Shown here one piece after another: positions 22,032 through 36,810 of a stretch of DNA of 44,077 nucleotides. The notes under the pieces were generated by a model. It was not told the DNA's origin and ran no database searches. It saw only the letters and a program-made list of their open reading frames with translations. This DNA is from Shigella phage EP23, in sequence record JN984867, one strand, 5' to 3'. Position numbers and translations under genes: made by a program. Within the stretch, counting starts at the first letter, position 1, and each line of letters starts with the position of its first letter.

Positions 22032-23660
22032 ATGGCAGCGGGTACGCTCTCCGTAACGAACAATAGCAAGGCTGTAGTAGGGGTTGGCACAACGTTTACC
22101 GAGTACAAGGCTGGTGACTTCTTATCGCTGGTGGTTGGGCAAGTGCCTTACACCGTGGCGATCGCGTCCATCGAAAGCGCAACCGCGCTCACACTGGTGT
22201 TGCCGTTCGACGGCCCAACGGCGACGGGTCTGGCCTGGGACGGCATCAAACGTGACACCATGTCATTGGCGACGATGGGCGTAACCGTCCAGGCGCAAAA
22301 AGCATTGCGATTGATGATCGCAGATGAGAACAACTGGCGCGCAATCTTCGGAGAAGAAGAGGAAATAACAGTGACGTTACCTAACGGGCAGGTTATGCAG
22401 GGCATGTCATGGGGCTATCTGTCGCAGCTAATGAAGCAGATCGACCCCGTAGAAATGCGCAACCTGCAACAACAGGCCGAGACGGCAAAAAACCAGGCTG
22501 TTACTGCGAAGGGCCAGGCAGAATCAGCGCGCGATGCGGCTAATACAGCAAAAACTGGCGCGGAGAACGCCCGCAACCAGGCCAACACCGCACGTGATCA
22601 GGCCAACACCGCCAAAACAGGCGCAGAATCAGCGCGCGATGCGGCTAATACAGCAAAAACTGGTGCGGAGAACGCCCGCAGCCAGGCGCAAGGGTATCGC
22701 GACGAAGCAGAGCAGTTTAAAAACCAAATCAACCCATCACAGTTCATGCTTAAGTCGCAAAACCTTAGCGACGTAGCGAACAAAGATACGGCGCGGGACA
22801 ATCTGTCACTAGGCCGCACTCAGCGTGCGCAATTTGAGGGGGTTGACCTGTCTAAAAGCGACTGGCCCGGCTTAAGGTTTATTACAACCAGCATGTCACC
22901 AACAGAGGTCGGCTATCGCGTTGTCTTTGAGCATGATTCGAGTGATAACCGCATGGCGCTCTACTGGCGAAATGGCTCAGATGCCAATGGGCAGGCCGCC
23001 GTCCACTTCACCGCGCCTGCCAGCGGGCAGACGCGATTTATTGCATACAAGGAAGAAGTAAACCTTCCAGAAATTACAGGCTGGGGCGTAGCGGCTCCCT
23101 CGCAAGGACCGAGGGCGACGAACGCCACAAACCTTGCGCCGGGGCTTTATTGGGGTACCGTCGCTGACGTCGGCAATCCAATTTCAGGAACACTCGGCAT
23201 GTCGATGCTTCAAACATCAGGATCATCCGCCAATTACCGCTGCCAGTTGGTGTTTCAGGATAGCGCGGGCGGGGCGATGTATCTCCGTTCCAGTAATAGT
23301 AGCGTTTTTGGTAACTACAAGCAGGTAACTACCTCTGCGGTGTCGGATGAGCGCCTGAAAACTGTCCGGGGAAATCTTAATCTAGAAGGTGCGCTGGATA
23401 ACATAAACCGAATGGATTTTAAAATTTTCTCGTTCCTGAGTGATGGGCCGGAACGTAGCTACCGACGCGGCGTTATCTCGCAGCAGATCCGCCAGATTGA
23501 TAAGCAGTACACGAAAGAGATCGGCGGGTACTATCATCTTGATCAGACACCAATGCTACTGGACGCCCTAGCGGCAATTAAAGCATTGCGGGCGCGTGAC
23601 GAGGCTAATAAAGCAGAGATTGCAGAGTTAAAAGCGGCGATTGCAGAATTGAAAAAATAA
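22032..23660 (+). CDS. side tail fibre with C-terminal intramolecular chaperone (peptidase S74-type) domain
   Basis: 542 aa. Coiled repeat region, then a C-terminal S|DERLKTVRGNLN...IDKQYTKEIGG...ELKAAIAELKK typical of autocleaving fibre chaperone domains. Start trimmed to 22032. Confidence 0.8.
   Translation: MAAGTLSVTNNSKAVVGVGTTFTEYKAGDFLSLVVGQVPYTVAIASIESATALTLVLPFDGPTATGLAWDGIKRDTMSLATMGVTVQAQKALRLMIADENNWRAIFGEEEEITVTLPNGQVMQGMSWGYLSQLMKQIDPVEMRNLQQQAETAKNQAVTAKGQAESARDAANTAKTGAENARNQANTARDQANTAKTGAESARDAANTAKTGAENARSQAQGYRDEAEQFKNQINPSQFMLKSQNLSDVANKDTARDNLSLGRTQRAQFEGVDLSKSDWPGLRFITTSMSPTEVGYRVVFEHDSSDNRMALYWRNGSDANGQAAVHFTAPASGQTRFIAYKEEVNLPEITGWGVAAPSQGPRATNATNLAPGLYWGTVADVGNPISGTLGMSMLQTSGSSANYRCQLVFQDSAGGAMYLRSSNSSVFGNYKQVTTSAVSDERLKTVRGNLNLEGALDNINRMDFKIFSFLSDGPERSYRRGVISQQIRQIDKQYTKEIGGYYHLDQTPMLLDALAAIKALRARDEANKAEIAELKAAIAELKK
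22518..22680 (+). repeat. direct repeat inside the fibre gene (58 bp x2, 105-bp period)
   Basis: 22518-22575 versus 22623-22680 differ at 1 of 58 positions. They encode the repeated AESARDAANTAKTGAENAR segment. Confidence 0.85.
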
Positions 23661-23664
23661 AAGA

Positions 23665-23687
23665 GGGGGCCACACGGCCCCTTTTTT
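23665..23687. terminator. bidirectional terminator
   Basis: GGGGCC-ACAC-GGCCCC followed by TTTTTT, between convergent genes. Confidence 0.8.
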
Positions 23688-24261
23688 AGTTTGAGTTTTC
23701 CCAGTCCATTTTGCGCCGCACCAGCGGGCTTTCGTAATATTCCTTCCCCTCCACTTCCAACAAGGGCCAATCGTTCACAATCACGTAGGGTTCCGCAATG
23801 TCCTCAATTACGCCGTGCGCGCTGTGCTGCCCGAATGACACACCAACCAGGATAACACCGGCAACTCGACGTGTGAGGTACTCGTGCGCGCAACGTGCCT
23901 CAACCAGTCCGCGACGGATGCCGCTGGTGGCTTTCACCTCGTAGGTCCAAACGGCATCGATCATGTGCTCACGGTAGTCGGGGCCGGATTTAACCTTGCG
24001 CTTACCGACCATAATAATATCGCCGCGGTCGATGGTGTTGGCGCTAAACAGGCCAGTACGCATTAGCAAGCCTTGCGGTATGCAACTACGCCCGCCTGCC
24101 TGCCCCTCAAGGTACATGCCCGCAAACATCTCGCCAAGCACACCGACGAGACGGCTTTGTTTGCACGCGTCTGACTTTAAACGCCATTGATCAAACTCGA
24201 TGCTTGCTAACATTGCCGCCAGGTGGAATTGTTTACCGGTTATTTCAAATTCTCCGAACAT
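23686..24261 (-). CDS. hypothetical protein, possible PD-(D/E)XK nuclease fold
   Basis: 191 aa, SD GGGGGA. GDIIMVG ... TYEVKAT spacing resembles the D...(D/E)xK motif. Confidence 0.55.
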   Translation of the reverse strand: MFGEFEITGKQFHLAAMLASIEFDQWRLKSDACKQSRLVGVLGEMFAGMYLEGQAGGRSCIPQGLLMRTGLFSANTIDRGDIIMVGKRKVKSGPDYREHMIDAVWTYEVKATSGIRRGLVEARCAHEYLTRRVAGVILVGVSFGQHSAHGVIEDIAEPYVIVNDWPLLEVEGKEYYESPLVRRKMDWENSN

Positions 24262-24303
24262 TGTGAATCCCCCATTGCTGCGGGCCGAAGCCCGCGATTA
24301 GTG

Positions 24304-24858
24304 TTATTTCAGTGCGCTACGCACCAGTGTTTTTTCCATGTTGCGGAAGTCTTCCGGCGTCATGCAGATTTTCGGTCCGTCTTCGCCGGTGAGCACGACC
24401 ATAGGCTGGGCGTCCTGATCTGCGATGCCAAAATCGCCGGCCTTAACAGTCTTGCCGAACGAGGCTACCGTGTCCTCCGCAACGCGAATTGCGCTGTTAT
24501 ACGCATTAATCTCACCGTCCAGGCGCACGGACAGGCCTTTGAGGCTTTCAAACTGTTCTGCCGTTGTATCGATCTGAATCTCGTCATGCACGGTCATGTA
24601 AGACTCGCCCAGCAGGGAGGCATACGCCACCAGATCCACGATGTTATCTTCCTGGTGCTTACGGTGCTGGCGCACCAGCTTCAGGCAGATTAGGAAGGTC
24701 CAGGCTTCTTGCTCTGTCAAGTCGCGACCGGTAAGCGCGTTAAACACGGCAGCGATTTGTTTAGCGCTGCGTTCTTCTTTCGCGTTGTCATAGCCGTTTT
24801 CTTTCCCGCGCTGTTCCATAGTGGTGGCGGCGTTTTTGCAGTATTCGTATGCTTTCAC
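24304..24858 (-). CDS. hypothetical protein (184 aa)
   Basis: GTG start behind AAGGG. Downstream of the 24905-24934 promoter. Confidence 0.6.
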   Translation of the reverse strand: MKAYEYCKNAATTMEQRGKENGYDNAKEERSAKQIAAVFNALTGRDLTEQEAWTFLICLKLVRQHRKHQEDNIVDLVAYASLLGESYMTVHDEIQIDTTAEQFESLKGLSVRLDGEINAYNSAIRVAEDTVASFGKTVKAGDFGIADQDAQPMVVLTGEDGPKICMTPEDFRNMEKTLVRSALK

Positions 24859-24904
24859 AGTATTACCCTTTTAGCGAGGGGGCTGTATTGCCCCCGACAC
24901 GTTT

Positions 24905-24934
24905 ACTATAGTGCAACCAACCTATTGGTTGCAA
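24905..24934 (-). promoter_or_regulatory. sigma70-like promoter overlapping a perfect inverted repeat
   Basis: On the minus strand: TTGCAA-18 nt-TATAGT. The plus strand carries TGCAACCAA-ccta-TTGGTTGCA (24912-24933). Confidence 0.55.
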
Positions 24935-25392
24935 GTGAATTTTGCAACGTTTATTGCGTAAATTTTCGGGACCAAATCACCACACGCCCGACGAATTGCC
25001 GCGATGTTCTTCGGGCAGTCCTCAATGATGACCAGTTCCGACACGTCCGCATAGCAGACCATTTTGAACACGGCGCACGCCTTAAACTCAGGCGGCGGGG
25101 TGTCGTCCAGCATGTGGCGCATAAACAACCGGCCTACTGGGAAGACCTCCAATTGCTCGGCGGTGGTGTCCCAACATTCTCGCTGCCGGTTTGTCAGATA
25201 CGCGATCTCGAAGCCTTGCTCTTTATACATGCGCAGCAGCGGCAGCATATCCATGTTCAGGTCTTCGCGGACGTGCGCTTTGTGCCACTTCGCCCAAAAG
25301 GTGGATTTCGTTTTTATCCCCGGCACCAGGTCGGCGCGCGCATCGCTTGATCCATTAATAACGCCATCCAGATCACAAATCAGTAATTTCAT
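24922..25392 (-). CDS. HAD-superfamily phosphatase-like protein
   Basis: 156 aa. N-terminal LICDLDGVI (DxDG motif I). Confidence 0.55.
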   Translation of the reverse strand: MKLLICDLDGVINGSSDARADLVPGIKTKSTFWAKWHKAHVREDLNMDMLPLLRMYKEQGFEIAYLTNRQRECWDTTAEQLEVFPVGRLFMRHMLDDTPPPEFKACAVFKMVCYADVSELVIIEDCPKNIAAIRRACGDLVPKIYAINVAKFTCNQ

Positions 25393-25613
25393 TTCAATTC
25401 CTCAATCAAATTTGCACGAACAGTACGGGCGGAAAACGTGTCACACACAAGATGACAGCGGGCAGTCATTACAAGCCAGCCAGTAAGGTCCATGCCCAGG
25501 AGGTGTTCTGGCCGTGACACGCGACGCACTTTGTTCTCCCTCGGGTTGATTTGGTAGCGTTTAACAATTTCGTCCACGACGCGCATACTGCGATCAACGA
25601 TTAAGATATTCAC
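25389..25613 (-). CDS. hypothetical protein (74 aa)
   Basis: ORF with overlaps to both neighbours (ATGA with the downstream gene, 20 nt with the upstream gene). Confidence 0.5.
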   Translation of the reverse strand: MNILIVDRSMRVVDEIVKRYQINPRENKVRRVSRPEHLLGMDLTGWLVMTARCHLVCDTFSARTVRANLIEELK

Positions 25614-26079
25614 GTAGTTCTCCCTCGCTCATTATTTCAATTTGTGCGCTGCCGGTGGGCGGCGCTTCGTCGAAGATTATCAATTGCTGGCACTTGTTAT
25701 TGCTCGGCCCGACTTCACCAGTTACAGCGTGAATAAATCGGATACGCCAGTCCAGAAGAATTATCAGGTTTGCAGTCTTCCGGGCCAGCTTCGCCCACTT
25801 AGTCGACGTGTCCTGATTCAGTAGCATGACGGTCCGGCGTCCGTGCGCTGCGCACTTGACCCACGGCAGCGGATCGGAATACGGCGGGTTGCACCACTTC
25901 CACCCTTTCAACTCTGACCAGTCCACCTCAAGCGCGCTGTGCTCTGCCGTGAAGTAACGCGGTAGAAGGTGGTTGGCATCGCTCGCCGCCATATCGTAAC
26001 GGAATCGGTACTTCCGGCGCAGCGGTTTAAATAAAGCTGGCGGCGTGCGCCAGCTATCTTTTTGCTCACTCTTCTGCAT
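25594..26079 (-). CDS. dam: DNA N6-adenine methyltransferase (phage Dam family)
   Basis: SWRTPPALF ... YDMAASDANHLLPRYFT ... WCNPPYS motifs. Confidence 0.85.
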   Translation of the reverse strand: MQKSEQKDSWRTPPALFKPLRRKYRFRYDMAASDANHLLPRYFTAEHSALEVDWSELKGWKWCNPPYSDPLPWVKCAAHGRRTVMLLNQDTSTKWAKLARKTANLIILLDWRIRFIHAVTGEVGPSNNKCQQLIIFDEAPPTGSAQIEIMSEGELREYLNR

Positions 26080-26524
26080 GATCTGGATCTATCGCGTACA
26101 GGGCAATTTTCTTATTACTGTTTAGAACGCGTTGCACGCGCTTTGATTCCTCGGTGCCGAGTGGTCGGCAGTCGGAGTAGTAAGACCCGTTCCCCCGCCA
26201 CGCAACCAGCACCAGGTCTTTCCGGTCAATCTTAGACTGGCGGCCCTTCGGACGCACGTACTCCTCGGCCCGTTTGCAATGCTCACGCAGACCATCGGCA
26301 GTGATGCGGTTTAGTGCAACGCTGGTGGTGTATCCGGTGCGCTGCATAATCCCCATCAATTTGAAAAGCAGTTCGAAGCGCTCCTCTAGCTCCTGGCGCA
26401 CTTTCTTCTCTCCTTCATATAGCGCCTGGTTGGTGTCCACCAACGCGTTAGCCCGTTCGGCCTGTTCGCGGGCTTCGAGGCATTGCGCGGCCCAGTAATC
26501 TTTTTCTTCTTGTAAAATTCTCAT
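26066..26524 (-). CDS. hypothetical protein (152 aa, coiled-coil N-terminus)
   Basis: Start trimmed to the ATG at 26524 behind GGAGA. The promoter at 26571-26599 lies just upstream. Confidence 0.6.
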   Translation of the reverse strand: MRILQEEKDYWAAQCLEAREQAERANALVDTNQALYEGEKKVRQELEERFELLFKLMGIMQRTGYTTSVALNRITADGLREHCKRAEEYVRPKGRQSKIDRKDLVLVAWRGNGSYYSDCRPLGTEESKRVQRVLNSNKKIALYAIDPDHAEE

Positions 26525-26570
26525 CGTGTTGTCTCCAGGTATTAAAAAGGGCGTCCAACCGGACACCCTC

Positions 26571-26599
26571 AATATAATGCAACCAATATGCTTATGCAA
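26571..26599 (-). promoter_or_regulatory. sigma70-like promoter
   Basis: On the minus strand: TTGGTTGCAT (-35 TTGCAT)-17 nt-TATATT, with a second TTGGTTGCA abutting the -10. Confidence 0.6.
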
Positions 26600-26604
26600 C
26601 CAAT

Positions 26605-26922
26605 TTACGCATAAAAATTTGGGTCGCGCGCAACGTCTACCAAGTAAAGGTTACTAATGCGGTTGCCGTAGTGGCCAGGTGTGCGCTGACGGCACACTAC
26701 GGCATAGCCTGGAGGTATTGTATTGCCAGTCTCGATAATCCACGCCACGCGTGCGCCAGACAGCGTCTTGCCGTTGCACTCGATACGAGTACCGCCATCA
26801 GTAGTATTGAGGTTGCCAATCTTGCAGCCGGTGGATTTCAGACGGATGACTCCGGTTTTGCTGTCGTAGGTGAATAGCTGGTTAGTCATTGCGACCGAAA
26901 AATCGATTGGTTCGAATGTCAT
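26605..26922 (-). CDS. HNH-endonuclease-like protein, apparently degenerate
   Basis: 105 aa. ARVAWIIETGNTIPPGYAVVCRQ...NRISNLYLV resembles HNH_3-type proteins, but Cys sits where the catalytic His is expected. Confidence 0.4.
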   Translation of the reverse strand: MTFEPIDFSVAMTNQLFTYDSKTGVIRLKSTGCKIGNLNTTDGGTRIECNGKTLSGARVAWIIETGNTIPPGYAVVCRQRTPGHYGNRISNLYLVDVARDPNFYA

Positions 26923-26923
26923 T

Positions 26924-28351
26924 TTAAATTTTCCTCGTTTTCTTAGCTTTCATGTATTCCATCAAGTCGTCCTGGATATCTCGCCTACTGTCGCGACGCT
27001 CGGCGACCAATTCGTCCAGTGTCCCGCGAGCCTGGATAATGTAGACGAATACTGGTCGAGGGTGTCCGGCTTGCATCTGGCGAACCGGCCCGATACGTTC
27101 AACGATCTGCGAAAAGTGCTCAAAGTTCCAGGTATCGGAGAAGATTGCCAGGTGATGTCCGCCGTCCTGCAAGTTAAGGCCGTGGCCTGCCGATGCCGGG
27201 TGTGCAAACATGATGGGGATCTCGCCCCTGTTCCACGCTTCCATATCCTTATTGCCCTGCTTACCCTTACCCAACGCGACGCCGTGCGGAAATTTCTTCT
27301 TAAGACGTGCCAGATCATGCTTGTACTGATACGCAACGAGCAACGGCGCGCCGTTCAACTCCTCCACGATACTTTCCAGCGCGTCCAGCTTCGCGTCGTG
27401 AATCTTCACCCACTCGTCGGTCCGTTCGCCGTCTTCGTCCACCTTATACACAGCGCCGGATGCAAGCTGAAGGCACTTAATTGTCTTCGCCGCGGCGTTC
27501 GCCGCTTCCACTGTTCCGCTTTCCAGTTCGGCAAATAGCTCGCTTTCAAACTGGTCATAAATCTTGCGGGCTTTCTTCGGCAGGTCCACAACAACCGGCG
27601 TATAGATTGGCTTGTCACACCCGAAGTATTCAGCCGCATCAACGGTTAGCGACACGTCGGACAGTCGTTGTTGTATTTCTTTCTCGGAGTTCTTAAGCGG
27701 GGCGTGCTGCATCGTGAAGCTGCCAGGCTTAACAGGCTTGCTAATAAACCAGCGGTCCGTGAACGCCTTATAGCTACTGCCGAGACGTTCGCCGCCGTCG
27801 ACAAACCACGTCTGACCCCATAGGTCTTTCAGCCCGTTCGGTGCGGGTGTGCCAGTCAGGTTAATCCAGCGCTTGACGTGCTTATGTGCGATCGCTGCCA
27901 GCGCACGGGCGCGCTTACTTCCCTGCTTGCTTCTATAGCCTTTCAGCTTAGTGGATTCATCGGCAACCACGACCGTAAAGGGCCACTCGTCGCCGCAATA
28001 CTCAACAAGCCACTCAACTACATCATAGTTAATACAAACCACGTTAGCGTCGCTCTCAAGCGCAGCGATGCGGTCCTTCTCTGGCCCAGTGCCGTCTACT
28101 ACCAGCAAGGCTGGGAAGCGCCATTTCTCCTGTTCCGGGGGCCATGTACCGGACGCAACGCGCAGCGGGGCCAGCACCAGTACGCGGTCATCCTGGTTGG
28201 ACAGGATGCCAGTCTGGAACATTTTATTCAGCGCCCACATGGTCGCGCCGGTTTTACCCGACCCCATTGTCGCCCATATATTGCATCGCTTATGCTTGAG
28301 GATGAACGCGGTTATCAACTTCTGATATTCGCGACGTCGGAAACGTGCCAT
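26924..28351 (-). CDS. SNF2/DEAD-like helicase
   Basis: Walker A ATMGSGKTG, motif II VVADESTKLK, C-terminal helicase domain (HPASAGHGLNLQ). The ORF is open to 28441. The ATG at 28351 avoids a 90-nt overlap with the upstream gene. Confidence 0.85.
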   Translation of the reverse strand: MARFRRREYQKLITAFILKHKRCNIWATMGSGKTGATMWALNKMFQTGILSNQDDRVLVLAPLRVASGTWPPEQEKWRFPALLVVDGTGPEKDRIAALESDANVVCINYDVVEWLVEYCGDEWPFTVVVADESTKLKGYRSKQGSKRARALAAIAHKHVKRWINLTGTPAPNGLKDLWGQTWFVDGGERLGSSYKAFTDRWFISKPVKPGSFTMQHAPLKNSEKEIQQRLSDVSLTVDAAEYFGCDKPIYTPVVVDLPKKARKIYDQFESELFAELESGTVEAANAAAKTIKCLQLASGAVYKVDEDGERTDEWVKIHDAKLDALESIVEELNGAPLLVAYQYKHDLARLKKKFPHGVALGKGKQGNKDMEAWNRGEIPIMFAHPASAGHGLNLQDGGHHLAIFSDTWNFEHFSQIVERIGPVRQMQAGHPRPVFVYIIQARGTLDELVAERRDSRRDIQDDLMEYMKAKKTRKI

Positions 28352-28355
28352 TTCT

Positions 28356-28574
28356 TTATTCCGCCTTTTTCCAGACTTCAGTTTCACTATCCCAGTTCCT
28401 CTTTGTGGCGTCGTAGTTGGTGGCGTGTCCGACGTGGACACCGGTAGCCCGGAAGCTCTTAAATTTTTGCCAGCACACCGTCAACGGCAGTGGGTAATTT
28501 AGGCCCGCGATAAACCACACGCGATCGCCTGGTTTACATTCGCCCAGCTTGGTGAGTCGGTAATGTTCTTTCAT
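28356..28574 (-). CDS. hypothetical protein (72 aa)
   Basis: SD GGGAGA 7 nt upstream of the ATG at 28574 (alternative start 28580). Confidence 0.5.
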   Translation of the reverse strand: MKEHYRLTKLGECKPGDRVWFIAGLNYPLPLTVCWQKFKSFRATGVHVGHATNYDATKRNWDSETEVWKKAE

Positions 28575-28586
28575 CGTCATGTCTCC

Positions 28587-28610
28587 CAAAAATGGCGGGA
28601 CAAGCCCGCC
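28587..28610 (-). terminator. candidate terminator
   Basis: On the minus strand: GGCGGG-CTTGT-CCCGCC followed by ATTTTT. The plus strand contains one GCGGGACA box. Confidence 0.5.
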
Positions 28611-28617
28611 GTATTAA

Positions 28618-28791
28618 TTATTTTTGTTCTGCACGGTAGCGGCGCTGCCGTTCGCGCTCTTTCTTATTGCGGCACGATTTGCACTCTGCCCGATACCCGT
28701 CTGGACTGCGCGCAGTCTTACCGGTGTATTTGTGGAACTGGGATAGCGGCTTTACACAGCCGCAATTACTACAACGTTTTTCTTCAATCAT
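28618..28791 (-). CDS. small zinc-ribbon protein (57 aa)
   Basis: CSNCGC ... CKSCRNKK four-Cys pattern, basic C-tail. Start trimmed to 28791 behind GAGGA, downstream of the 28823-28851 promoter. Confidence 0.55.
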   Translation of the reverse strand: MIEEKRCSNCGCVKPLSQFHKYTGKTARSPDGYRAECKSCRNKKERERQRRYRAEQK

Positions 28792-28822
28792 CTCTAAAAT
28801 CCTCGATATGGCTAACCGGCAC

Positions 28823-28851
28823 ACTATACCGCTATGCGACCAATTCAGCAA
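28823..28851 (-). promoter_or_regulatory. sigma70-like promoter
   Basis: On the minus strand: TTGGTTGCTG (-35 TTGCTG)-17 nt-TATAGT, with TTGGTCGCA in the spacer. Confidence 0.5.
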
Positions 28852-29110
28852 CCAATAAATCGCAGTCGGATATGTTGTCGATAACGCGAACGTCAGCACC
28901 GCGGCGGGCCATTCGCTCATGTTCACGTACCTGGTGCGGCTTCGGTTTTCCTCCGGGGCGCTTCACTTCGACGAACACTATTTTGCCGTTGATGATAATA
29001 ATCAGGTCGGGCGCACCTGCGCGCCCCTCCCATGCCAGTTTTCGGCAGAATCCGCCAACATCTTTCACCCGTCTCATCAGGTGGCTTTGAATCTTGCCTT
29101 CTGGTGTCAT
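28832..29110 (-). CDS. VRR-NUC domain nuclease
   Basis: 92 aa. GAPDLIIIINGKIVFVEVKRPGGKPKPHQVREHERM matches the VRR-NUC core (D...EVK). Its ATG overlaps the polymerase stop by 1 nt (TAATG). Confidence 0.8.
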   Translation of the reverse strand: MTPEGKIQSHLMRRVKDVGGFCRKLAWEGRAGAPDLIIIINGKIVFVEVKRPGGKPKPHQVREHERMARRGADVRVIDNISDCDLLVAELVA

Positions 29111-32100
29111 TACTTGCGGTAGCGATACATGCAATCGCCCTCTGCGGCAAGTGGGAAGCCTTTCGCCCAAACCGGCAGGTCGCACATCAGCGCGCACAAC
29201 TCCTCGGTTGTGTAGTCGTCGGTATCCGGCACTTCGGTTATCAGCTCATCGTGTACGGAAAGTACGATCTCATACCCCGCAGCTTCAACGCCAGGCATGG
29301 ACCATGCGAGAATATCGCGGCACAACGCCTGTACGATGTTTTCCGTCAGTTTGCCGCCGTAGGTATACTGGAATCCCCACTGGCGCGTCGTCTGATTCTC
29401 GCCCTGATATTTAATGCGTGTGCTGGTGCGCTTCTTGCCGGTGTCTTCGTCGATCTCGGTCGTGACAGACAGCGCGATGCCAGGGTAGCTCATGATGCGC
29501 CCTGACGGCAACTCAATTTTAAGCCACCACCCCGCCGCGTTCGGGTCGTCGCGCTCCTCGTCGAAGGTCGGGTCATGCTTCGCCTTCGTTCGAACAATTT
29601 TGAGCGCTTTCCTGCCATCCGGGCGAACGTTCGCGCCAGCCCAGTACGCTTTGCCCGGATTGCGGATCGCGCAGAGCACCGCGTCCTCCAGTTCGGCCCA
29701 AAAGGCTACCGTCATCGGGTGAGACTCACGCCACATACGTTTGATCGCGTCACACGTCAGCCACACGTTTTTCGGCAGTATGTAAGTTGGGCGCTCGTCT
29801 TTCTTGCCAGGCTTCGGCGGGCGCTTCTCCTCGTTAATGCGAGCGTACTCATAACCCCGCTTCGCCGCCGCCCAAATGTGATCCGGGAATGTGCCCTTCA
29901 TGACGTCAGCCATAGTGTAAAGGTCGAGGCCCAGGTTTTTAGCGAACTGCAAGAACGCCGCGACGCCGCCACCATAGCCCAGGCCAAGCTCGCAGTTATG
30001 CGCCACCAGAAAACCAGACTTAGACGCAATAAGGAACCGGTTTCCGTCTTCCACATCAATCAGGTCGTAAACCGGCTCGCAATAGGTTAACTTCCCGTTC
30101 CAGTTCAGCAATGCGGGTAAGGGCTTCATCGTACTTTCTCTGAAGCTCGGGCACGCTGCGCCGGTTACGGCAGTTTTCCGAACGGCTGACAAACCGAAGG
30201 TTTCCAGGCTCATAGTCGCCGTCTGTATCGATCCTGTCCATTTCGAAGTCTGGCTTATCCCAGCCGTCCAGCGTTTGAACGTAGAGAAGAAACGACCTTT
30301 TATCTCTCTTCCATTCGTCACATACGGCAATCCCACGACCGCCGTAGTTTTTATACCCTTTGGCGCGGGGGTTTGTCGTTCGTGATATTGCCGCTGACAG
30401 CCGGTTGAGTAGCCGCGTTCTGTGCGCATCGTCTGGCATTGCGTCATCGTAGCAAAAATACTGTTTACGATACCGCTTTGTCGCTTCAATTGCGCAGAGG
30501 TTGCATTGGGATGTTTTACCCCTTCGGACGTTGTCATACCCGACGCGTCCTGGCATCGCTCCGCAATCACATTGGGCCAGCAGTTGTCTGTGACCCTGTC
30601 GTTTTGGTAATTCGCGCAGGATAACCAGGCGTCCATACCTCTCGCCAGGGCGCGGACCATCGTGCACCTGTCTGAAACGAGTTGCCTTGCCTCCTTCCAT
30701 GAATGCGTCAAGATTTTGTGGTCTTCTGTCATCAAGACCCCGTCCACGTCTATCACTGGTTTCCACCCCATAAGGTGCGCGCCTTTTGTACTCACCCATT
30801 TTTCGCCGTTCCATACTTTATCCGTTGATGTTACGGCCATAATATCCTTGAACCCGCCATTGGTCAATACTTGGGTATGGCGGTGCAAGCAAGCCTTACC
30901 GATCTGGCGTAAGTCCTTGCGGTTGGCTTTAATGTAATCCGGGTCAAGGCCGAACATCTTACCGGCAGTCTCGCAATAGATATCGCGACCGGCCTTAAAG
31001 ACCATTAACGCTGTTTTCTCGCCAGCGATCCAGGCAAGTCCACGCCCTTCCACATTGGAGTAGTCCGCTACGACAAACTTCTTGCCCTTCGCCGGAATAA
31101 TGCACCCGCGAACGGTCGAGGCCGTTAGCTTCGATATGTCATACGCCCAGTGTGCGGTCCCGCGTAACAGGGAGTTGATGCCGTTGGTGAGCATGTGCGA
31201 CCGGACCCAAAACGAGACGTCGCTTTCACCCTCGCGGCGTTTAATCTTCCCTTCGTGGTCGTCGCTGTACTCGCCACGCGCCAGGTTTTGAGGCTGGAAG
31301 CCTTTGCCCGCCCAGCGCAGCGTGCGCTTTGCGCCGCCATACTGAAGACACCCACGGCGGCGACCATCTGCGGATAAGCCGTTAACTAGCGGATTGTACT
31401 TAGTCGATGCCGTTGATGACGCCCCGAGGCGCATTTCGATAAGCGCTTTGCCTTCGTCGGGGAAGTCCGGGTCTTCAAGCAGGTCGTTAAGCGTGGATTT
31501 CTGCGCGTTGTGGATCGTGAACGCCGGGGCGATATCACGCAGGATTGGCAGGAAGTCATTGCCTGTCAGCTTACCGCCAAATCGCTCCCAGGCTTCTTCC
31601 TTCAATTCTTCCTTATGCGCCTGCACCGCTTTGATCGCGGCGTTCGCCAGGTCAACGTCGACGTAGAAGCCGCGGTCGTTAATCAACTGGTCGATGAGCA
31701 GGATTTCATCTTCCTTAGGCGAGTTTCCCCAGTCCGGTATGCGCCAGTAGACTTCACGCATTGCGATAATATCCAGCGCGGCATAGCGCAGAAATTTGGC
31801 CCATTCTTCCGGGTGAGTCTCGCGAGTGTAGCGGCGGATTTTGTAGGTCTTAGGGGTAGGCTTACAGAATCGGTTAATCAGCGCCTTGCCTGCCTTATCC
31901 TTCGCGTGCTCTGCGTCAACGCCCAGAACCTGGCACTGCATATCGAGGCTACCGGGCAGCGCGTGGCGAAAGGCCATAATCATAGTGTCTTCGATCTGGC
32001 TTACCGGCAGGTCAATACCCCACTTCTCGCGGATAACCAGGCGGTCAAACAGGAGGCCGTTAGCCATCACTATTTTAGCCTTCTTGCGGGATACCCGGCG

Positions 32101-32298
32101 GAGCGCCTTGCGCAGTTCACGCGGCATTGTGGGGGATTCAGTGGCATCCCATGTCTGCACGCGGCCCTCGTCTATGGCGTAGGTGCAAATCATAATCTCT
32201 GTGGTTGGGTGCTCCGCGTAGGCGTACGCCCCAACTTTCTTCAGGTCCACCCCGCTAAATGTCTCGGTGTCGAGAAACAGGCGTTCGAAGTCTTTCAT
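29110..32298 (-). CDS. family A DNA polymerase precursor with 3'-5' exonuclease domain, interrupted by an intein
   Basis: Exo I FLDTETFS. Polymerase motif B is split as RQIGKA|C...HN|CELGLGYGGG. Exteins are 30892-32298 and 29110-29994. Confidence 0.9.
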   Translation of the reverse strand: MKDFERLFLDTETFSGVDLKKVGAYAYAEHPTTEIMICTYAIDEGRVQTWDATESPTMPRELRKALRRVSRKKAKIVMANGLLFDRLVIREKWGIDLPVSQIEDTMIMAFRHALPGSLDMQCQVLGVDAEHAKDKAGKALINRFCKPTPKTYKIRRYTRETHPEEWAKFLRYAALDIIAMREVYWRIPDWGNSPKEDEILLIDQLINDRGFYVDVDLANAAIKAVQAHKEELKEEAWERFGGKLTGNDFLPILRDIAPAFTIHNAQKSTLNDLLEDPDFPDEGKALIEMRLGASSTASTKYNPLVNGLSADGRRRGCLQYGGAKRTLRWAGKGFQPQNLARGEYSDDHEGKIKRREGESDVSFWVRSHMLTNGINSLLRGTAHWAYDISKLTASTVRGCIIPAKGKKFVVADYSNVEGRGLAWIAGEKTALMVFKAGRDIYCETAGKMFGLDPDYIKANRKDLRQIGKACLHRHTQVLTNGGFKDIMAVTSTDKVWNGEKWVSTKGAHLMGWKPVIDVDGVLMTEDHKILTHSWKEARQLVSDRCTMVRALARGMDAWLSCANYQNDRVTDNCWPNVIAERCQDASGMTTSEGVKHPNATSAQLKRQSGIVNSIFATMTQCQTMRTERGYSTGCQRQYHERQTPAPKGIKTTAVVGLPYVTNGREIKGRFFSTFKRWTAGISQTSKWTGSIQTATMSLETFGLSAVRKTAVTGAACPSFRESTMKPLPALLNWNGKLTYCEPVYDLIDVEDGNRFLIASKSGFLVAHNCELGLGYGGGVAAFLQFAKNLGLDLYTMADVMKGTFPDHIWAAAKRGYEYARINEEKRPPKPGKKDERPTYILPKNVWLTCDAIKRMWRESHPMTVAFWAELEDAVLCAIRNPGKAYWAGANVRPDGRKALKIVRTKAKHDPTFDEERDDPNAAGWWLKIELPSGRIMSYPGIALSVTTEIDEDTGKKRTSTRIKYQGENQTTRQWGFQYTYGGKLTENIVQALCRDILAWSMPGVEAAGYEIVLSVHDELITEVPDTDDYTTEELCALMCDLPVWAKGFPLAAEGDCMYRYRK
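29995..30891 (-). mobile_element. intein (299 aa) in polymerase motif B
   Basis: Block A CLHRHTQVLTNGGFKDI, block B LMTEDHKILT, C-terminal blocks VYDLIDVEDGNRFLIASKSGFLVAHN followed by the +1 Cys. Boundary codons checked on the sequence: 30889-30891 = Cys, 29995-30000 = His-Asn, 29992-29994 = Cys. Confidence 0.85.
30056..30814 (-). CDS. HNH-family homing endonuclease-like ORF nested inside the intein in the -1 frame
   Basis: Motifs GERYGRLVIL, CDCG...QCNLC, YKNYGGRGIAVCDEW, MDRIDTDGDYEPGNLRFVSRSENCRNRR. 30814 is the maximal ORF start. The ATG at 30700 (214 aa) lies just before the conserved core. No clear SD at either start. Confidence 0.7.
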   Translation of the reverse strand: MERRKMGEYKRRAPYGVETSDRRGRGLDDRRPQNLDAFMEGGKATRFRQVHDGPRPGERYGRLVILRELPKRQGHRQLLAQCDCGAMPGRVGYDNVRRGKTSQCNLCAIEATKRYRKQYFCYDDAMPDDAHRTRLLNRLSAAISRTTNPRAKGYKNYGGRGIAVCDEWKRDKRSFLLYVQTLDGWDKPDFEMDRIDTDGDYEPGNLRFVSRSENCRNRRSVPELQRKYDEALTRIAELEREVNLLRAGLRPD

Positions 32299-32465
32299 TG
32301 CTTTATCCTCACTACGGCGTCAGCGCTGCCGATCATGGAGAAGATGCCGTCGGACAGGGCGATCTCTTCGCCGTTGTTGCGAATCTCGGCAACTGTGAAA
32401 TATTCCCCCAGTAGCTTGGACCATACTTGCATTCCGACTTTTACTTCGCTGGCTTTAATACGCAT
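32295..32465 (-). CDS. small hypothetical protein (56 aa; below the ORF-track cutoff)
   Basis: Translated by hand: MRIKASEVKVGMQVWSKLLGEYFTVAEIRNNGEEIALSDGIFSMIGSADAVVRIKQ. ATGA overlap with the polymerase start. AGGA upstream. Confidence 0.5.
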   Translation of the reverse strand: MRIKASEVKVGMQVWSKLLGEYFTVAEIRNNGEEIALSDGIFSMIGSADAVVRIKQ

Positions 32466-32481
32466 TTTTCATTGTCCTGTT

Positions 32482-32505
32482 AAAAAGCCCGCATTAAGCG
32501 GGCTT
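32482..32505 (-). terminator. intrinsic terminator after the SSB gene
   Basis: On the minus strand: AAGCCCGC-TTAAT-GCGGGCTT followed by TTTTT. Confidence 0.75.
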
Positions 32506-32523
32506 GAATAGTGGGCTTTGCCC

Positions 32524-33198
32524 TTAACGGCGGCGACGTTTACGTGGCGCTTCGTCTTCGTCGTCGTCTTCGTCATCGTCATCACGACGTTTTGACTTTT
32601 TGGACTTACGCGGGCTTTCATCTTCGTCATCGTCGCCCAGGTCTTCGTCGGAACATGAAGACCCGCCACCGCCGAAGGCTTCGCCGTCATCACGGAAGCG
32701 CATACCCAGCAGACCACAGCCTAAGCCTTTGCCGTTGGTATTGTTCCAGGCCCAAATATCTAAGGAAACGTTGCAATAGCAACCGGAATAGATTTCCTTC
32801 CCTTCGATTTCGTCGCCGTCGATGGTCAGACCCTGCTCCGTCTGCTTCTCGCCTTCGGAAGTCTGGATGATCGGCTGTTTGAACGATTTGGCGTTGATGT
32901 ACAACATGCCTTCGAATTCTTCGGTTACTTCGTCGCGCTCGTCACCGTCGCGAACTGCGCATTCCTTAGAATCCTGGGCGTAGTGGCGGTCCATCCACTT
33001 ATCAGCATTCTTCTCGGATTTCAGCTTGTCGGTTAGCACTGCGCGCGCTGCCGCTTCCACTTTGTCCACCTGCGGATCTTCTTTATCAAGAAGAATCACT
33101 GCACGGTATGCCGGTTTTTGTCCATCCTGTTTAGGGGTATCACGTTCCCAAATTTTAAGGAAACATACGCGCACATTTTTCAGGTTGACTTTAGCCAT
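32524..33198 (-). CDS. ssDNA-binding protein (DUF2815 / gp2.5-like), inferred
   Basis: 224 aa. The N-terminus MAKVNLKNVRVCFLKIWE and the position between the DUF2800-type nuclease and PolA match the known DUF2800-DUF2815-PolA module. Mixed acidic/basic C-tail. Start trimmed to 33198 behind GAGGA. Confidence 0.6.
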   Translation of the reverse strand: MAKVNLKNVRVCFLKIWERDTPKQDGQKPAYRAVILLDKEDPQVDKVEAAARAVLTDKLKSEKNADKWMDRHYAQDSKECAVRDGDERDEVTEEFEGMLYINAKSFKQPIIQTSEGEKQTEQGLTIDGDEIEGKEIYSGCYCNVSLDIWAWNNTNGKGLGCGLLGMRFRDDGEAFGGGGSSCSDEDLGDDDEDESPRKSKKSKRRDDDDEDDDEDEAPRKRRRR

Positions 33199-33263
33199 TT
33201 TCCAATTCCTCATTTTCACATGTATCGGGGTTATTGGAAGCCACCCCGTTCGGCTTGGTTGCT

Positions 33264-33292
33264 AATTTACTTGGTTGCGCCTGAGCGGTCAA
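33264..33292 (-). promoter_or_regulatory. sigma70-like promoter for SSB/polymerase genes
   Basis: On the minus strand: TTGACC-17 nt-TAAATT, with GCAACCAAG in the spacer and AGCAACCAAG just after the -10. Confidence 0.5.
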
Positions 33293-33531
33293 GCATTTTC
33301 ATTAAAAAGATTTCGGGTAACGTAGTTGGTCGCGTTCTCGATCCAGCTTAACGGCGGGCGGTTGATGTTCTTCTCCACCCAATCGACGGCAGCTTCGCTA
33401 TAGCCGTCATCCAGCCAGCGGGTCGGATGTCTAATCATCCATGCCACCATTAACACGCCTTGCACACAATGCAGGATAAAGCCCAGCGCGCCGATAACAA
33501 ACATCAATAAGATTGCGAATACTTTATTCAT
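33289..33531 (-). CDS. small membrane protein (80 aa)
   Basis: Two hydrophobic helices (VFAILLMFVIGALGFILHCVQGVLMVAWMI). Confidence 0.5.
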   Translation of the reverse strand: MNKVFAILLMFVIGALGFILHCVQGVLMVAWMIRHPTRWLDDGYSEAAVDWVEKNINRPPLSWIENATNYVTRNLFNENA

Positions 33532-34954
33532 TGCTTAAGTCCTCGTCAGTAGCTACAGACCACGCAGGGCGCGGGTCGTCGATGGGTGCTAATACCGGTT
33601 TAGCTGGTGCGCGCGTGATTTTATCACACAGCTTCGCCCATACTTTCGGCTTCTCGTCCTTCAATACCTTCTCGGCATCAGTAGGGCTGAGTAATGTTTC
33701 TTTGTACATCACATCGCGCTTGATCCGGGCCTTCGTGAAGATTTCAATCACTTCGCTTTCGTCCGCCCACTTGCGAATCCCTTCCTTACCTGCAACCATC
33801 TTGAGGCCCAGCGATTCGCCGTCGCCCGCCATCACAGCCTTGAATACCGCGGACTCGATAGCCTTGATGTGCTGGCGCATTGCGTCCAGGCCTTCATAAG
33901 CCTTGCGCAGTTCCGCGGCGGTCATAGCGCCGGGGGCCGCTTCTTTCTTGCCACGCTTCGCACGTCGTGCCGCTTTGCGGGCTTCGCGGGCCATATTGCG
34001 GTCGTGATTGGCGCATTCTTCCTCTGTCGCAATACTCACGTCGTCGCCCAGGTCTTCGTCTGTTGCCGTTGGTGGGGTCATCGTGCCGATTGCAGCCTTA
34101 GCGCGGGCGCTACACTGATCCGCAAATCTGCACCACTGACACGCATCAACGCTCGGTCGGAAGTCGGCGCGGGTGAGTCCCTTTTTTCCGCGGGAGTACG
34201 CTTCCAGGGCGGCGATAGCACGCTTGGACGCAAACTTAGCGAATATCTCCAGGGCTTCTACCGAAATATCCCACTCCGACGCCCCGCCGCAATACGGCTG
34301 GAAGATAACAAGGCGCACGGTTGTAATGTCGTACATAGTTTTCAGCTTGCGCAGCAAGCCCAGCGCATACAACATAAGCTGTTTGTTTTCTTTCGCCTCG
34401 ACCTTATGCCGCCCCGTCTTCAGGTCGCCAACAATCAGCATGTACGTGCCGTCGGTCTTCTTCATGACCATGACCATATCGGCAGTACCGAACGTCTTAA
34501 CCCGGTTGCCGTCGATCTCGAAGCCTGAGTGAAGGACGCGGGTCAGATCGGCGCGCATCTCAAGCTGAACAAACTCCGCCACTTCGAGGAGCGGTCGCCA
34601 GTGGTCGATGTACGCGTCGCACTGTTTCACCATGTCGTCGTTGACCAGTACGCCGCCTTTCGGTGCTTTCGGGTGGGCCTTTACCGGCCCCTTACCTTCG
34701 TTCTCTACGTAGCACCCTTTGTACGTCTTAGCGGTTATCAGCTTCTCCCCGGCAATGATGCGGTTTAGCACCACTTCAGATACGGTGTGCATACTCGTAC
34801 CGTTAATCGCCGCTTGCCCGGATTCGTTCGGGATATCTTTTTCCACCACCAGGGCGGCGGGACACCCCATCCATTTTTTAGCACCGGATGGGCCAAGTAA
34901 TGAGTGTTCCGTATTACTACCGGATTGCGTTTTACGTTTTGGTTTAATCGCCAT
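33524..34954 (-). CDS. DUF2800 / Cas4-like PD-(D/E)XK exonuclease
   Basis: 476 aa. LLGPSGAKKWMGCPA N-terminal motif, GDLKTGRHKV, C-terminal Cys cluster CQWCRFADQC. Confidence 0.75.
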   Translation of the reverse strand: MAIKPKRKTQSGSNTEHSLLGPSGAKKWMGCPAALVVEKDIPNESGQAAINGTSMHTVSEVVLNRIIAGEKLITAKTYKGCYVENEGKGPVKAHPKAPKGGVLVNDDMVKQCDAYIDHWRPLLEVAEFVQLEMRADLTRVLHSGFEIDGNRVKTFGTADMVMVMKKTDGTYMLIVGDLKTGRHKVEAKENKQLMLYALGLLRKLKTMYDITTVRLVIFQPYCGGASEWDISVEALEIFAKFASKRAIAALEAYSRGKKGLTRADFRPSVDACQWCRFADQCSARAKAAIGTMTPPTATDEDLGDDVSIATEEECANHDRNMAREARKAARRAKRGKKEAAPGAMTAAELRKAYEGLDAMRQHIKAIESAVFKAVMAGDGESLGLKMVAGKEGIRKWADESEVIEIFTKARIKRDVMYKETLLSPTDAEKVLKDEKPKVWAKLCDKITRAPAKPVLAPIDDPRPAWSVATDEDLSNE

Positions 34955-35396: not shown

Positions 35397-35424
35397 TAAA
35401 AAGAGGCCCGCTAATATGCGGGCC
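35397..35424 (-). terminator. intrinsic terminator
   Basis: On the minus strand: GGCCCGC-ATATTA-GCGGGCC followed by TCTTTTT. Confidence 0.7.
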
Positions 35425-35562: not shown

Positions 35563-36078
35563 TTAATCTTCCAGTTCGAAATAAGTTTCGACGATTTCTT
35601 TTAGCTCTTTGTGGAAGTCTTCGACGTCGTCATCTTCCAGCTTAGCGATTGATTTGATCTCGAACGATTCCAGAAGGTCGTCGAATTCGTCGTTCGCATC
35701 GTCGTCATCGCCACCGGCGATAATCGCGGCATACTGTTTGATTTCGTCGCGCATCTCCGCCAGCGGATCGGCATCTTTCTTACCTTTGCCTTTCGCCGGT
35801 GCTTTCTTAGACTTAGCCGGTTTTTCGTCTTCGGCATCGGCATCGTCGTCGTCATCTTCTACGACTTCTTTTTTGGCCTTACCTTTCGCCGGTGCTTTTT
35901 TGGTTTTCGCCGGGGCTTCGTCTTCAGCGTCGTCATCTTCTACGACTTCTTTTTTGGCCTTAGACGGCTTCTTGTCTTCCTGTTTACCAACGGCAGCGCC
36001 AACGGTTTCATAATGCTTAGCGATGATTTCCAGTGCTACTACGCCGCGAGTGATCAGGTTTACGATTTGCTCAAACAT
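35563..36078 (-). CDS. highly acidic early protein with Lys/Ala-Asp/Glu repeats (171 aa)
   Basis: SD GGAGA before the ATG at 36078. Repeats KKEVVEDDD..DE.PAK.KKAPAKGK. First gene downstream of the strong 36275-36303 promoter. Confidence 0.65.
   Translation of the reverse strand: MFEQIVNLITRGVVALEIIAKHYETVGAAVGKQEDKKPSKAKKEVVEDDDAEDEAPAKTKKAPAKGKAKKEVVEDDDDDADAEDEKPAKSKKAPAKGKGKKDADPLAEMRDEIKQYAAIIAGGDDDDANDEFDDLLESFEIKSIAKLEDDDVEDFHKELKEIVETYFELED
35780..35965. repeat. tandem ~81-bp repeats within the acidic protein gene
   Basis: gtcatcttctacgacttcttttttggcctta occurs at 35851-35881 and 35932-35962. cctttcgccggtgcttt recurs nearby. Confidence 0.8.
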
Positions 36079-36274
36079 GGTATATCTCCGATTGGTTAAG
36101 TTTAGGTGTCGACCATTAACTTCGTCGGTGGCCTTAACATAGTGCCAGGTTACGCGTTCTCCCGTTCGGGTAGTGGACCTGGTTATATAATCACGGTTGG
36201 GAATCCTGACACTTCGATCCGGCCCCTGCGTTGCCCCTCTCCAGTTTGCGTCCTGCATCCTGTCGACGAGGTGA

Positions 36275-36303
36275 ATATTAGATTGGTTGCAGAAGGGAGT
36301 CAA
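36275..36303 (-). promoter_or_regulatory. strong sigma70-like early-left promoter
   Basis: On the minus strand: TTGACT-17 nt-TAATAT, with TGCAACCAA in the spacer. About 190-nt leader before the ATG at 36078. Confidence 0.65.
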
Positions 36304-36313
36304 CAACTAATTT

Positions 36314-36350
36314 AAAAAAAAAAAGCGCCGAAGCAAAATGCGACGGCGCT
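36314..36350 (-). terminator. strong intrinsic terminator with no upstream protein gene
   Basis: On the minus strand: AGCGCCG-13-nt loop-CGGCGCT followed by T11. Confidence 0.8.
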
Positions 36351-36372
36351 AACCAATAAGAGACAATGAGAC
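36314..36372 (-). ncRNA. candidate ~60-nt small RNA (promoter-to-terminator unit)
   Basis: Bounded by the candidate promoter at 36379-36407 and the T11 terminator. No ORF. Purely structural prediction. Confidence 0.3.
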
Positions 36373-36378
36373 GGGAGT

Positions 36379-36407
36379 ATTATTACACGCGTGCGCGCCC
36401 GTTTCAA
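36379..36407 (-). promoter_or_regulatory. candidate promoter of the sRNA unit
   Basis: On the minus strand: TTGAAA-17 nt-AATAAT, preceded by TGT (extended -10). Back to back with the plus-strand promoter at 36421. Confidence 0.4.
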
Positions 36408-36420
36408 TATCCCAAAGGAG

Positions 36421-36449
36421 TTGACACCCTGCGGTTTTAGGTGTAGTTT
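36421..36449 (+). promoter_or_regulatory. sigma70-like early-right promoter
   Basis: TTGACA-17 nt-TAGTTT, then SD GGAGA and the ATG at 36481. Confidence 0.6.
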
Positions 36450-36480
36450 CATTGGTCATTAACCAACCGGAGACAGAATA

Positions 36481-36810
36481 ATGAATATCAACGACGCAAT
36501 CGAAATGCTAACGAAGACTGTCTGCAGTGAGACTAGCCGGTCCTGGGCGTATACCGATGCCGTGGGGGCGGTGCTATTTGAAATCGAACGTCTGCGACTT
36601 ACCGAAAAAGAATTGCGCGCGAAGCTGGAATTACTCAACGGTACGGCAGCCAGCAAGCTGCAAAAGCACAATGAAGAAATGGAAGAATACAAAAAACAGG
36701 TTATCCGTTTGCGCGCCGAGGGAAAATCCTGGGCGATGATCGCTGAGTTGACAGGAATTAATCAGAGCACCGTGCGCTCCTGGGTACGCAATAACAAAAC
36801 TTCGAAGTAA
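36481..36810 (+). CDS. HTH DNA-binding protein (109 aa)
   Basis: C-terminal helix-turn-helix KSWAMIAELTGINQSTVRSWVRNN. First gene of the rightward early operon. Confidence 0.6.
   Translation: MNINDAIEMLTKTVCSETSRSWAYTDAVGAVLFEIERLRLTEKELRAKLELLNGTAASKLQKHNEEMEEYKKQVIRLRAEGKSWAMIAELTGINQSTVRSWVRNNKTSK

Follow-up and report, generated by a model that had tools for sequence, protein, structure and literature searches.

The window analyzed here is a stretch of 44,077 nt from Shigella phage EP23 (sequence record JN984867), whose genome is that of a Dhillonvirus, an HK578-like siphophage of E. coli. The leader that concerns us sits within a 400-bp divergent control region, and the 1.5 kb around it matched 173 phage records in GenBank at 80 to 95% identity. 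Its setting is as follows.

35405 to 35424, minus strand: intrinsic terminator-like hairpin with 7 G-C pairs and a run of T; the early-left promoter, P_L, lies about 850 nt upstream
35563 to 36078, minus strand: left gene, the first early-left gene, encoding a 171-aa acidic protein (phrog_3127) with an internal repeat; function unknown
36079 to 36107, minus strand: A/C-rich, unstructured linker with TAACCAAT (36098-36091) and the Shine-Dalgarno (SD) sequence GGAG (36089-36086)
36106 to 36268, minus strand: predicted structured RNA element, whole, as matched by covariance model R1 (156 bits, E about 1e-43)
36275 to 36303, minus strand: P_L, with -35 TTGACT (36303-36298), a 17-nt spacer and -10 TAATAT (36280-36275); 9/12 in a consensus scan
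36481 to 36810, plus strand: right gene, encoding a 109-aa helix-turn-helix protein; the helicase-primase gene comes next

An earlier note on this DNA had pointed to a promoter, TTGACT-17-TAATAT, at 36303 to 36275 (minus), about 190 nt upstream of an SD-preceded ATG at 36078. The promoter, which is of the sigma-70 type, and the SD are both present, and the same start is annotated in three relatives. The note had also ranked P_L as the best promoter in the genome, which does not hold: its 9/12 compares with 10/12 at three sites in the 24- to 44-kb half on a simple consensus score. The P_L hexamers are kept in 17 relatives, several of which read TTGACA/TATTAT, and Dhillonvirus relatives reach 11/12. 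From the spacing, transcription is predicted to start at about 36267 ± 2. The hairpin at 35405 to 35424 precedes the remainder of a leftward operon of about 12 kb (about 12.6 kb in EP23, with further terminator-like sites at 28610 to 28594 and 26055 to 26035); the annotation of phage PTXU06 calls it a terminator, and it is kept in all 16 relatives alignable there, element-bearing or not. Within the left gene, an 81-bp direct repeat at 35848 to 35946 encodes KKEVVEDDD...KKAPAKGK. The annotations of phages welsh and jat list this repeat as a repeat_region, and its copy number seems variable (genes of 170 to 171 aa, with shorter alignments in PEC9 and jat).

The control region holds other signals as well. 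Directly upstream of P_L on the minus strand (36312 to 36407), a promoter-like TTGAAA-17-AATAAT with a TG, which scores highest in the region (10/12), precedes about 60 highly conserved nucleotides and then a hairpin, GCGCCG..CGGCGC, with T11. This unit, a candidate small RNA or attenuator, is kept in 17/17 relatives, one of which (L014; handles beginning with L are ours) has compensatory changes in the terminator stem. The motif TAACCAAY occurs at 36091 to 36098 (minus), 36350 to 36357 (plus) and 36460 to 36467 (plus), with a variant, CAACCAAT, at 36284 to 36291 (minus); its three matches genome-wide all fall in the 400-bp control region, and 2.3 are expected across 44 kb. Two of the sites lie just upstream of the SD sequences of the first leftward and first rightward genes. 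The remaining site is the body of the small-RNA candidate (5'-CAUUGUCUCUUAUUGGUUAGC) in reverse complement, so that pairing of this RNA with both ribosome-binding regions (UAACCAA plus GAGA) is conceivable. Alternatively, TAACCAAY may be an operator for the adjacent 109-aa helix-turn-helix protein. A likely rightward early promoter, TTGACA-17-TAGTTT (36421 to 36449, plus), stands back-to-back with the candidate small-RNA promoter; its weak -10 is the reason that a simple scan missed it, and an inverted repeat, TTGGTCATTAACCAA, spans its predicted start.

The leader reaches about 190 nt because it holds a discrete element of about 160 nt, at 36106 to 36268. We aligned the intergenic region of 17 Dhillonvirus relatives and found about 12 nt in place of about 141 nt in four of them, with promoter, SD and gene start still about 95% identical. 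Across GenBank, the element is present in about 146 of about 173 Dhillonvirus relatives and missing in ~16%. The short forms retain its first 9 nt (GTCGACAGG) and its last 5 nt and therefore look like losses of the element rather than the ancestral state. Presence and absence in near-identical Dhillonvirus backgrounds also argues against a linked phage-encoded partner. As for what stands in the gap, the retained AGG and the 12-nt filler, GCATACCGCCCG (about 1263 to 1276 in L006 and L008), together make up a small GGGC/GCCC hairpin, and L014 carries GTCG-AAA-CGAC in its stead; loss of the element may leave a short 5' hairpin behind.

A BLAST search with a 155-nt segment of the element as query placed it in 170 of 50,697 phage records, almost always as one copy per record and at 74 to 94% identity in phages other than dhillonviruses; in these 170 GenBank records it is either unannotated or overlain by a spurious "hypothetical protein." HK578 is among the Dhillonvirus carriers. 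The others come from Drexlerviridae/Tempevirinae (JK16, slyngel, tunus, swan01, JLBYU07, KMI8, and Motto), where a minority of the Drexlerviridae have it, from Sortsnevirus (sortkaff and IME279), and from the podovirus-like Murrayvirus (Lumpael), and they further include Enterobacter phage Arya, Serratia phage MQ-4, Klebsiella phage KA2-1, Alux-21, Salmonella phage PT1, BASEL phage Bas97, BUCT618, and PHB17. "Pseudomonas phage Motto" (ON843697.1) belongs to the Tempevirinae, and between its copy and that of the coliphage identity is 86.5%, which makes the host given for it worth checking. Neither 5,426 complete E. coli genomes nor 72,556 plasmids held a match to the element, and when exact patterns were run against 185,579 species, one genome apiece, the sole hit was a phage-like contig in a Cereibacter metagenome-assembled genome (MAG). 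This contig of the Cereibacter sphaeroides MAG (QFQS01000013.1; 42.8 kb) carries a sortkaff-like copy and was probably misbinned. Exact-pattern scans of contigs from viral and metagenome collections added ~20 phage contigs of 39 to 52 kb; pattern matches in six other sequences were dropped after inspection as chance. This distribution argues strongly that the element is an accessory module shared horizontally among several unrelated enterobacterial phage groups.

Thirty-seven distinct copies were aligned with MAFFT (alignment A2), almost without gaps. The invariant blocks of A2 read GGAGAGG-R-GC-R-ACGCAGGGGC, GATCG-W-AGTGTCAGGATTCCCAACCGTGA, CACT, AGAACGC, and AGGC-Y-ACCGACGAAG, and the variable segments between them are complementary pairwise. 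RNAalifold added to these pairings a helix S, GG-R-GC with GC-Y-A-CC, in which R-Y is A-U in 21 copies and G-C in 16, and an irregular hairpin inside an invariant block. We built covariance model R1 on the RNAalifold-extended structure and re-aligned all hits to it (alignment A3). The match at 36106 to 36268 is the sole one in the window, and its helices cover 36267 to 36108. In EP23 the parts of the element are the following.

36262 to 36267, minus strand: 5' strand of helix P1, GTCGAC, pairing with 36108 to 36113
36247 to 36257, minus strand: hairpin P2, TGC-AGGAC-GCA; loop GGA kept in every clade
36233 to 36246, minus strand: 5' side of P1b, AAC (36246-36244), invariant purine loop GGAGAG, and 5' side of helix S, GGGGC (36237-36233)
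36193 to 36231, minus strand: nearly invariant arm from RNAalifold, with ACG/CGU, GGGG/UCCC, CC/GG, GAU/GUC, and apical loop CGAAGU
36135 to 36190, minus strand: second arm, P3-P4-P5, with invariant CACU and AGAACGC
36190-36184 with 36141-36135, minus strand: P3; double changes in 4/5 pairs
36182-36177 with 36150-36145, minus strand: P4, CCAGGT/ACCTGG; 100% paired, 3 to 5 pair types per position
36173-36159, minus strand: P5, CCC-GAAC-GGG (triplets and loop at 36170-36161); 100% paired, CG20/GC17
36118 to 36132, minus strand: 3' side of helix S, GCC-A-CC (36132-36127), invariant loop GACGAA (36126-36121), and 3' side of P1b, GTT (36120-36118)
36108 to 36113, minus strand: 3' strand of P1, GTCGAC, pairing with 36262 to 36267

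The element thus described is about 160 nt long, with eight helices, a three-way junction and an invariant core of about 50 nt. Its fold can be proposed from the alignments with high confidence: P1 would close the element, P2 would form the GGA hairpin, P1b would follow, the loop GGAGAG would lie opposite GACGAA, and S would open the three-way junction. The arms of this junction would, very likely, be an almost invariant, irregular hairpin of about 40 nt and the P3-P4-P5 arm capped by a GNRA-type tetraloop.

The variable helices change sequence from clade to clade and keep their pairing. P1 is GTCGAC/GTCGAC in Dhillonvirus, GACGGGC/GCCCGTC in Tempevirinae, AGGCG/CGCCT in L032, and GGGCGGCG/CGCCGCCC in others. 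The P2 stem is TGC/GCA, GCA/TGC or GCAA/TTGC; the model register for P2 fits the non-Dhillonvirus clades only, and the EP23 stem was read by hand. Within P1b and helix S, pair 27-154 of A3 is A-U in 15 copies, G-C in 15 and G-U in 5, and pair 37-143 is A-U in 21 and G-C in 16. P4 has at least nine sequence variants, every one complementary: besides the EP23 form, CCTGGT/ACCAGG, CCCGGT/ACCGGG, CATGAT/ATCATG, CTATC/GATAG, CGCAC/GTGCG, CGTAC/GTGCG (with one G.U), CATAAC/GTTATG, CGCTGG/CCAGTG, and CATTGG/CCAATG. P5 is a 3-bp stem (CCC/GGG, CCG/CGG, GCC/GGC or CTC/GAG) with a GNRA tetraloop in most clades and ACCA in one. The arm at 36193 to 36231, which contains GGATTCCCAACCGTGA, is 100% paired and, being mostly invariant, is weakly tested, with few supporting changes (GC36/AU1, UG35/UA2, and UG21/CG16). 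On the opposite strand, a perfect TATAAT lies inside P3 (36186 to 36191, plus) in Dhillonvirus copies only and without a -35; it is probably incidental to the AU-rich P3.

Standard pairs fill 92.9% of the pair cells of A3, compared with 30 to 45% when partners are slid by 1 to 3 columns, and 21 of 43 pairs are changed on both sides, compared with 2 to 6 after sliding. For covariation, the structure scores 0.356 and the slid controls no more than 0.064; none of 500 column shuffles attained the observed score. A3 is fitted to the structure, which favors it, and the helix variants are also visible in the plain MAFFT alignment. Paired columns contain 116 G.U cells and 9 A.C cells, and the selected molecule is therefore the minus-strand transcript, in the sense of the operon. 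Single-sequence folding did no better than shuffles on either strand (z = -0.04 for the sense strand and +0.94 for the other). The comparative structure of EP23 has a folding energy of -34.6 kcal/mol, above the unconstrained minimum of -46.7 kcal/mol, which explains why folding one sequence missed it.

These results bear on several features to which the earlier note had drawn attention. The two GTCGAC sites, at 36262 to 36267 and 36108 to 36113, do exist; they had been taken for two palindromes and are instead the two strands of P1. The pairing of CCAGGT with ACCTGG (36182-36177 and 36150-36145), which encloses CCCGAACGGG and the inner CCC-GAAC-GGG, is there as described and corresponds to the covarying helices P4 and P5. 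As to the suggestion of a structured regulatory leader, the structure is borne out by helices that covary across phage families, and the regulatory role is one that we infer. Altogether, we consider it highly probable that 36106 to 36268 (minus) encodes a discrete, noncoding structured RNA of about 160 nt without an Rfam counterpart.

We then considered where the element lies within transcripts of other phages. In nine annotated non-Dhillonvirus contexts it lies within about 240 nt of unannotated sequence and points the same way as both flanking genes. In ~20 upstream contexts a -10-like hexamer (TAATAT, TATTAT, TATAGT, CATAAT, and others) ends 8 to 11 nt before P1, so the RNA is predicted to begin where P1 begins or no more than about 4 nt away. 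A good -35 often accompanies this -10, as in L034 (TTGACA-16-TATAGT; 11/12), and the Drexlerviridae copies match the promoter poorly at the -35 (7/12). A terminator precedes the promoter in EP23 (36348 to 36312), Alux-21, L034, and L037. Downstream, no terminator was found between the element and the next open reading frame (ORF) in the 3' flanks of ~22 distinct contexts, and in all other phages the next gene starts 13 to 46 nt after the element, through an A/C-rich linker and an SD. The genes that follow are unrelated (phrog_3127, 8121, 38793, and 4344, a predicted signal-peptide protein, others, or genes with no PHROG family), and an autoregulatory, protein-binding leader of a single gene family was rejected on the ground that flanking genes differ between phages. 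Between element and next gene, MQ-4 has GCCCCGG-UACG-CCGGGGC (about 2665 to 2690), a hairpin of great stability that lacks a U tract, and Alux-21 has an equivalent, CCCCAC-CAGC-GUGGGG (about 2670 to 2690); both are possible processing or stabilizing signals. In JLBYU07, the 28-kb co-directional array has seven strong terminators between late genes. These seven intrinsic terminators lie at 23156 to 34381 (plus), where good promoters are few.

Comparison with known RNA classes gave no assignment. Rfam 15 returned no match for the whole window at gathering score, and relaxing the cutoff to E ≤ 10 for the EP23, L037, and L019 copies brought up nothing inside the element. Many copies have an ACCA-like tail after P1, and a tRNA or tmRNA was therefore considered and rejected: ARAGORN found no tRNA or tmRNA genes in the window, relaxed thresholds yielded only inconsistent hits on the opposite strand, and the tail belongs to the general A/C-rich linker. 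Searches for the core sequence, and of the literature on structured and antiterminator RNAs of phages, found no description of the element in the searchable literature. Fremin, Bhatt and Kyrpides (2023) predicted from IMG/VR a set of 10,006 structured RNA candidates, some of them putative cis regulators located upstream of genes (PMC10690425); the element, which we found in IMG/VR contigs, may be among them.

Other systems share part of its character. To our knowledge, very few protein-independent RNAs that act on the transcribing polymerase have been described, and put of phage HK022 is the paradigm, having stood almost alone for thirty years among phages of Gram-negative bacteria. The put RNA, of about 70 nt, forms two stem-loops in a V shape with a triplex in stem I (PMC9378689). 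The putL copy directly follows P_L, starting at +1 to +3 of the transcript and pairing from +3 onward; its target is the beta' zinc-binding domain of the host polymerase, and it suppresses pausing and termination for at least 10 kb, whatever genes follow (PMC9378689). Like put, the element is a cis-encoded, promoter-proximal RNA of a siphophage without its own RNA polymerase: it would start at +1 to +4, forms the 5' part of an early transcript co-oriented with the operon (with the -10 at 8 to 11 nt before P1), stands first in long operons with terminators inside them, and possesses an invariant core that suits a conserved host target. Unlike put, it spans about 160 nt, combines an internal loop and a three-way junction with a helix that closes the whole, occurs as one copy per genome rather than as a left and right pair, lacks a conserved -10-like pause signal, is dispensable in close relatives, and has no apparent sequence resemblance to put. 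In the 24- to 30-kb region of HK022, which may include putL (the record has no put annotation), R1 found no match. With lambda nut, the element shares the character of a promoter-proximal RNA signal in an early operon, and P5 is likewise a small hairpin with a GNRA-type loop. However, a boxA pattern (at most one mismatch) occurred in 0 to 1 of 31 sequences, P5 has 3 bp and a tetraloop where boxB has a 5-bp stem and a pentaloop, no N-like protein was identified, and the element is far larger.

We tentatively read the element as a promoter-proximal, cis-acting RNA that would modify the transcribing polymerase, put-like in position and not in fold. The RNA would act while emerging from its own polymerase, on the elongation complex or on the nascent transcript, and expression of whichever operon follows would rise. 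The most concrete model is read-through of terminators and pauses, as with HK022 putL. The invariant core would be the contact surface for a conserved host component, e.g., RNA polymerase, and the variable helices would be scaffolding. A cis-acting RNA fits an element that is promoter-proximal, always in sense orientation, free of a terminator of its own, indifferent to the genes that follow, invariant at its core, and placed at the head of terminator-containing operons in phages without a polymerase. Several observations weigh against this reading. Relatives without the element keep the terminator at 35405 to 35424, so passing this terminator does not require the element, and the element comes and goes independently of it. 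In L034, the unit headed by the element ends at a terminator ~700 nt downstream, with a fresh promoter directly after, and looks meant to terminate. In Drexlerviridae, the element sits in the third gap of the operon, with a perfect consensus promoter ~850 nt upstream, and its occurrence in a minority of the family means that it is not the family's general route to late transcription. The element is also twice the size of put, with another architecture and no apparent resemblance in sequence, and its patchy, accessory distribution suits an anti-defense or host-takeover RNA equally.

This last point leads to a possible, if somewhat doubtful, alternative, in which the element is an early noncoding RNA acting in trans. 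Cut out of the transcript or kept as its stable 5' part, it would serve as a decoy, inhibitor or sponge of a host or defense component and confer a conditional advantage on some hosts. Exchange among unrelated sipho- and podophages and dispensability in ~16% of dhillonviruses are in keeping with such a role, as is the location in hypervariable early regions, beside unrelated small genes, where the element is transcribed first. The invariant core argues for a conserved macromolecular partner here too. As in small-RNA genes, the element has its own -10 and a start at the base of P1; unlike a stand-alone small-RNA gene, it has no intrinsic terminator in any context, although release by processing is possible and the stable hairpins without U tracts in MQ-4 and Alux-21 could shield a processed 3' end. 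Against action in trans are the want of a terminator or defined 3' end in ~22 contexts, the constant co-orientation with an SD and start codon close behind, and the lack of an identified candidate target.

A riboswitch, or an aptamer that senses a ligand or signal and gates early genes by the state of the infected cell, is an unlikely reading. The multi-helix junction closed by P1, the invariant junction and loop nucleotides, the covarying helices, and the 5' untranslated location, 13 to 46 nt upstream of the start region of the next gene, are all reminiscent of riboswitches. However, the 3' flanks of 22 contexts contain no expression platform (no terminator, no helix competing with P1 and none hiding the SD), the genes downstream are unrelated and of unknown function, with no coherent theme, and there is no resemblance to a known riboswitch class in Rfam.

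It is more improbable still that selection acts on DNA or replication, whether through an origin or R-loop primer beside the helicase-primase genes or through a protein-binding DNA site. The element does adjoin helicase or primase genes in Dhillonvirus, MQ-4, and Alux-21, and its 5' half is G-rich. Yet the excess of G.U over A.C and the covariation are those of selection on a folded single strand of defined polarity, close relatives without the element are viable, and in Tempevirinae, Sortsnevirus, and Murrayvirus it does not lie beside replication genes.

The proposals that the leader encodes an N-terminal extension in an isoform of the 171-aa protein or is simply a spacer, with an open frame and pairings due to chance, can be set aside with near certainty: one frame is indeed open in EP23 (mechanically to 36306, with an in-frame ATG at 36258, 60 codons upstream of 36078) and in most Dhillonvirus copies, but that ATG has no SD ahead of it, two relatives (L007 and L009) carry a 2-nt insertion between SD and ATG that breaks the frame, four lack the segment altogether, Drexlerviridae/Tempevirinae copies have stops in all three frames, and the core of ~50 nt is invariant at all codon positions, so that invariance and covariation across families, and not codon-like variation, mark the region.

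Whether acting in cis or in trans, the element might found a class of phage RNA so far undescribed, one that is made ahead of all else in infection and reprograms a conserved host machine, a prospect that we regard as possible and decidedly uncertain. If it holds, one option is that E. coli RNA polymerase becomes terminator-resistant through a second fold, which has no relation to put and needs no protein factor; the other is an RNA decoy or inhibitor of a host defense or RNA-processing factor. Natural near-isogenic pairs with and without the element exist, compensatory variants specify mutants, and carriers include coliphages that are easily handled (HK578, SECphi4, and BASEL phages), with E. 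coli K-12 hosts. A larger RNA of different fold that sits where put sits, at the +1 of early promoters, and does so in at least four phage groups with no close kinship, would be either a second solution to the problem that put solves or a new kind of early-acting phage RNA.
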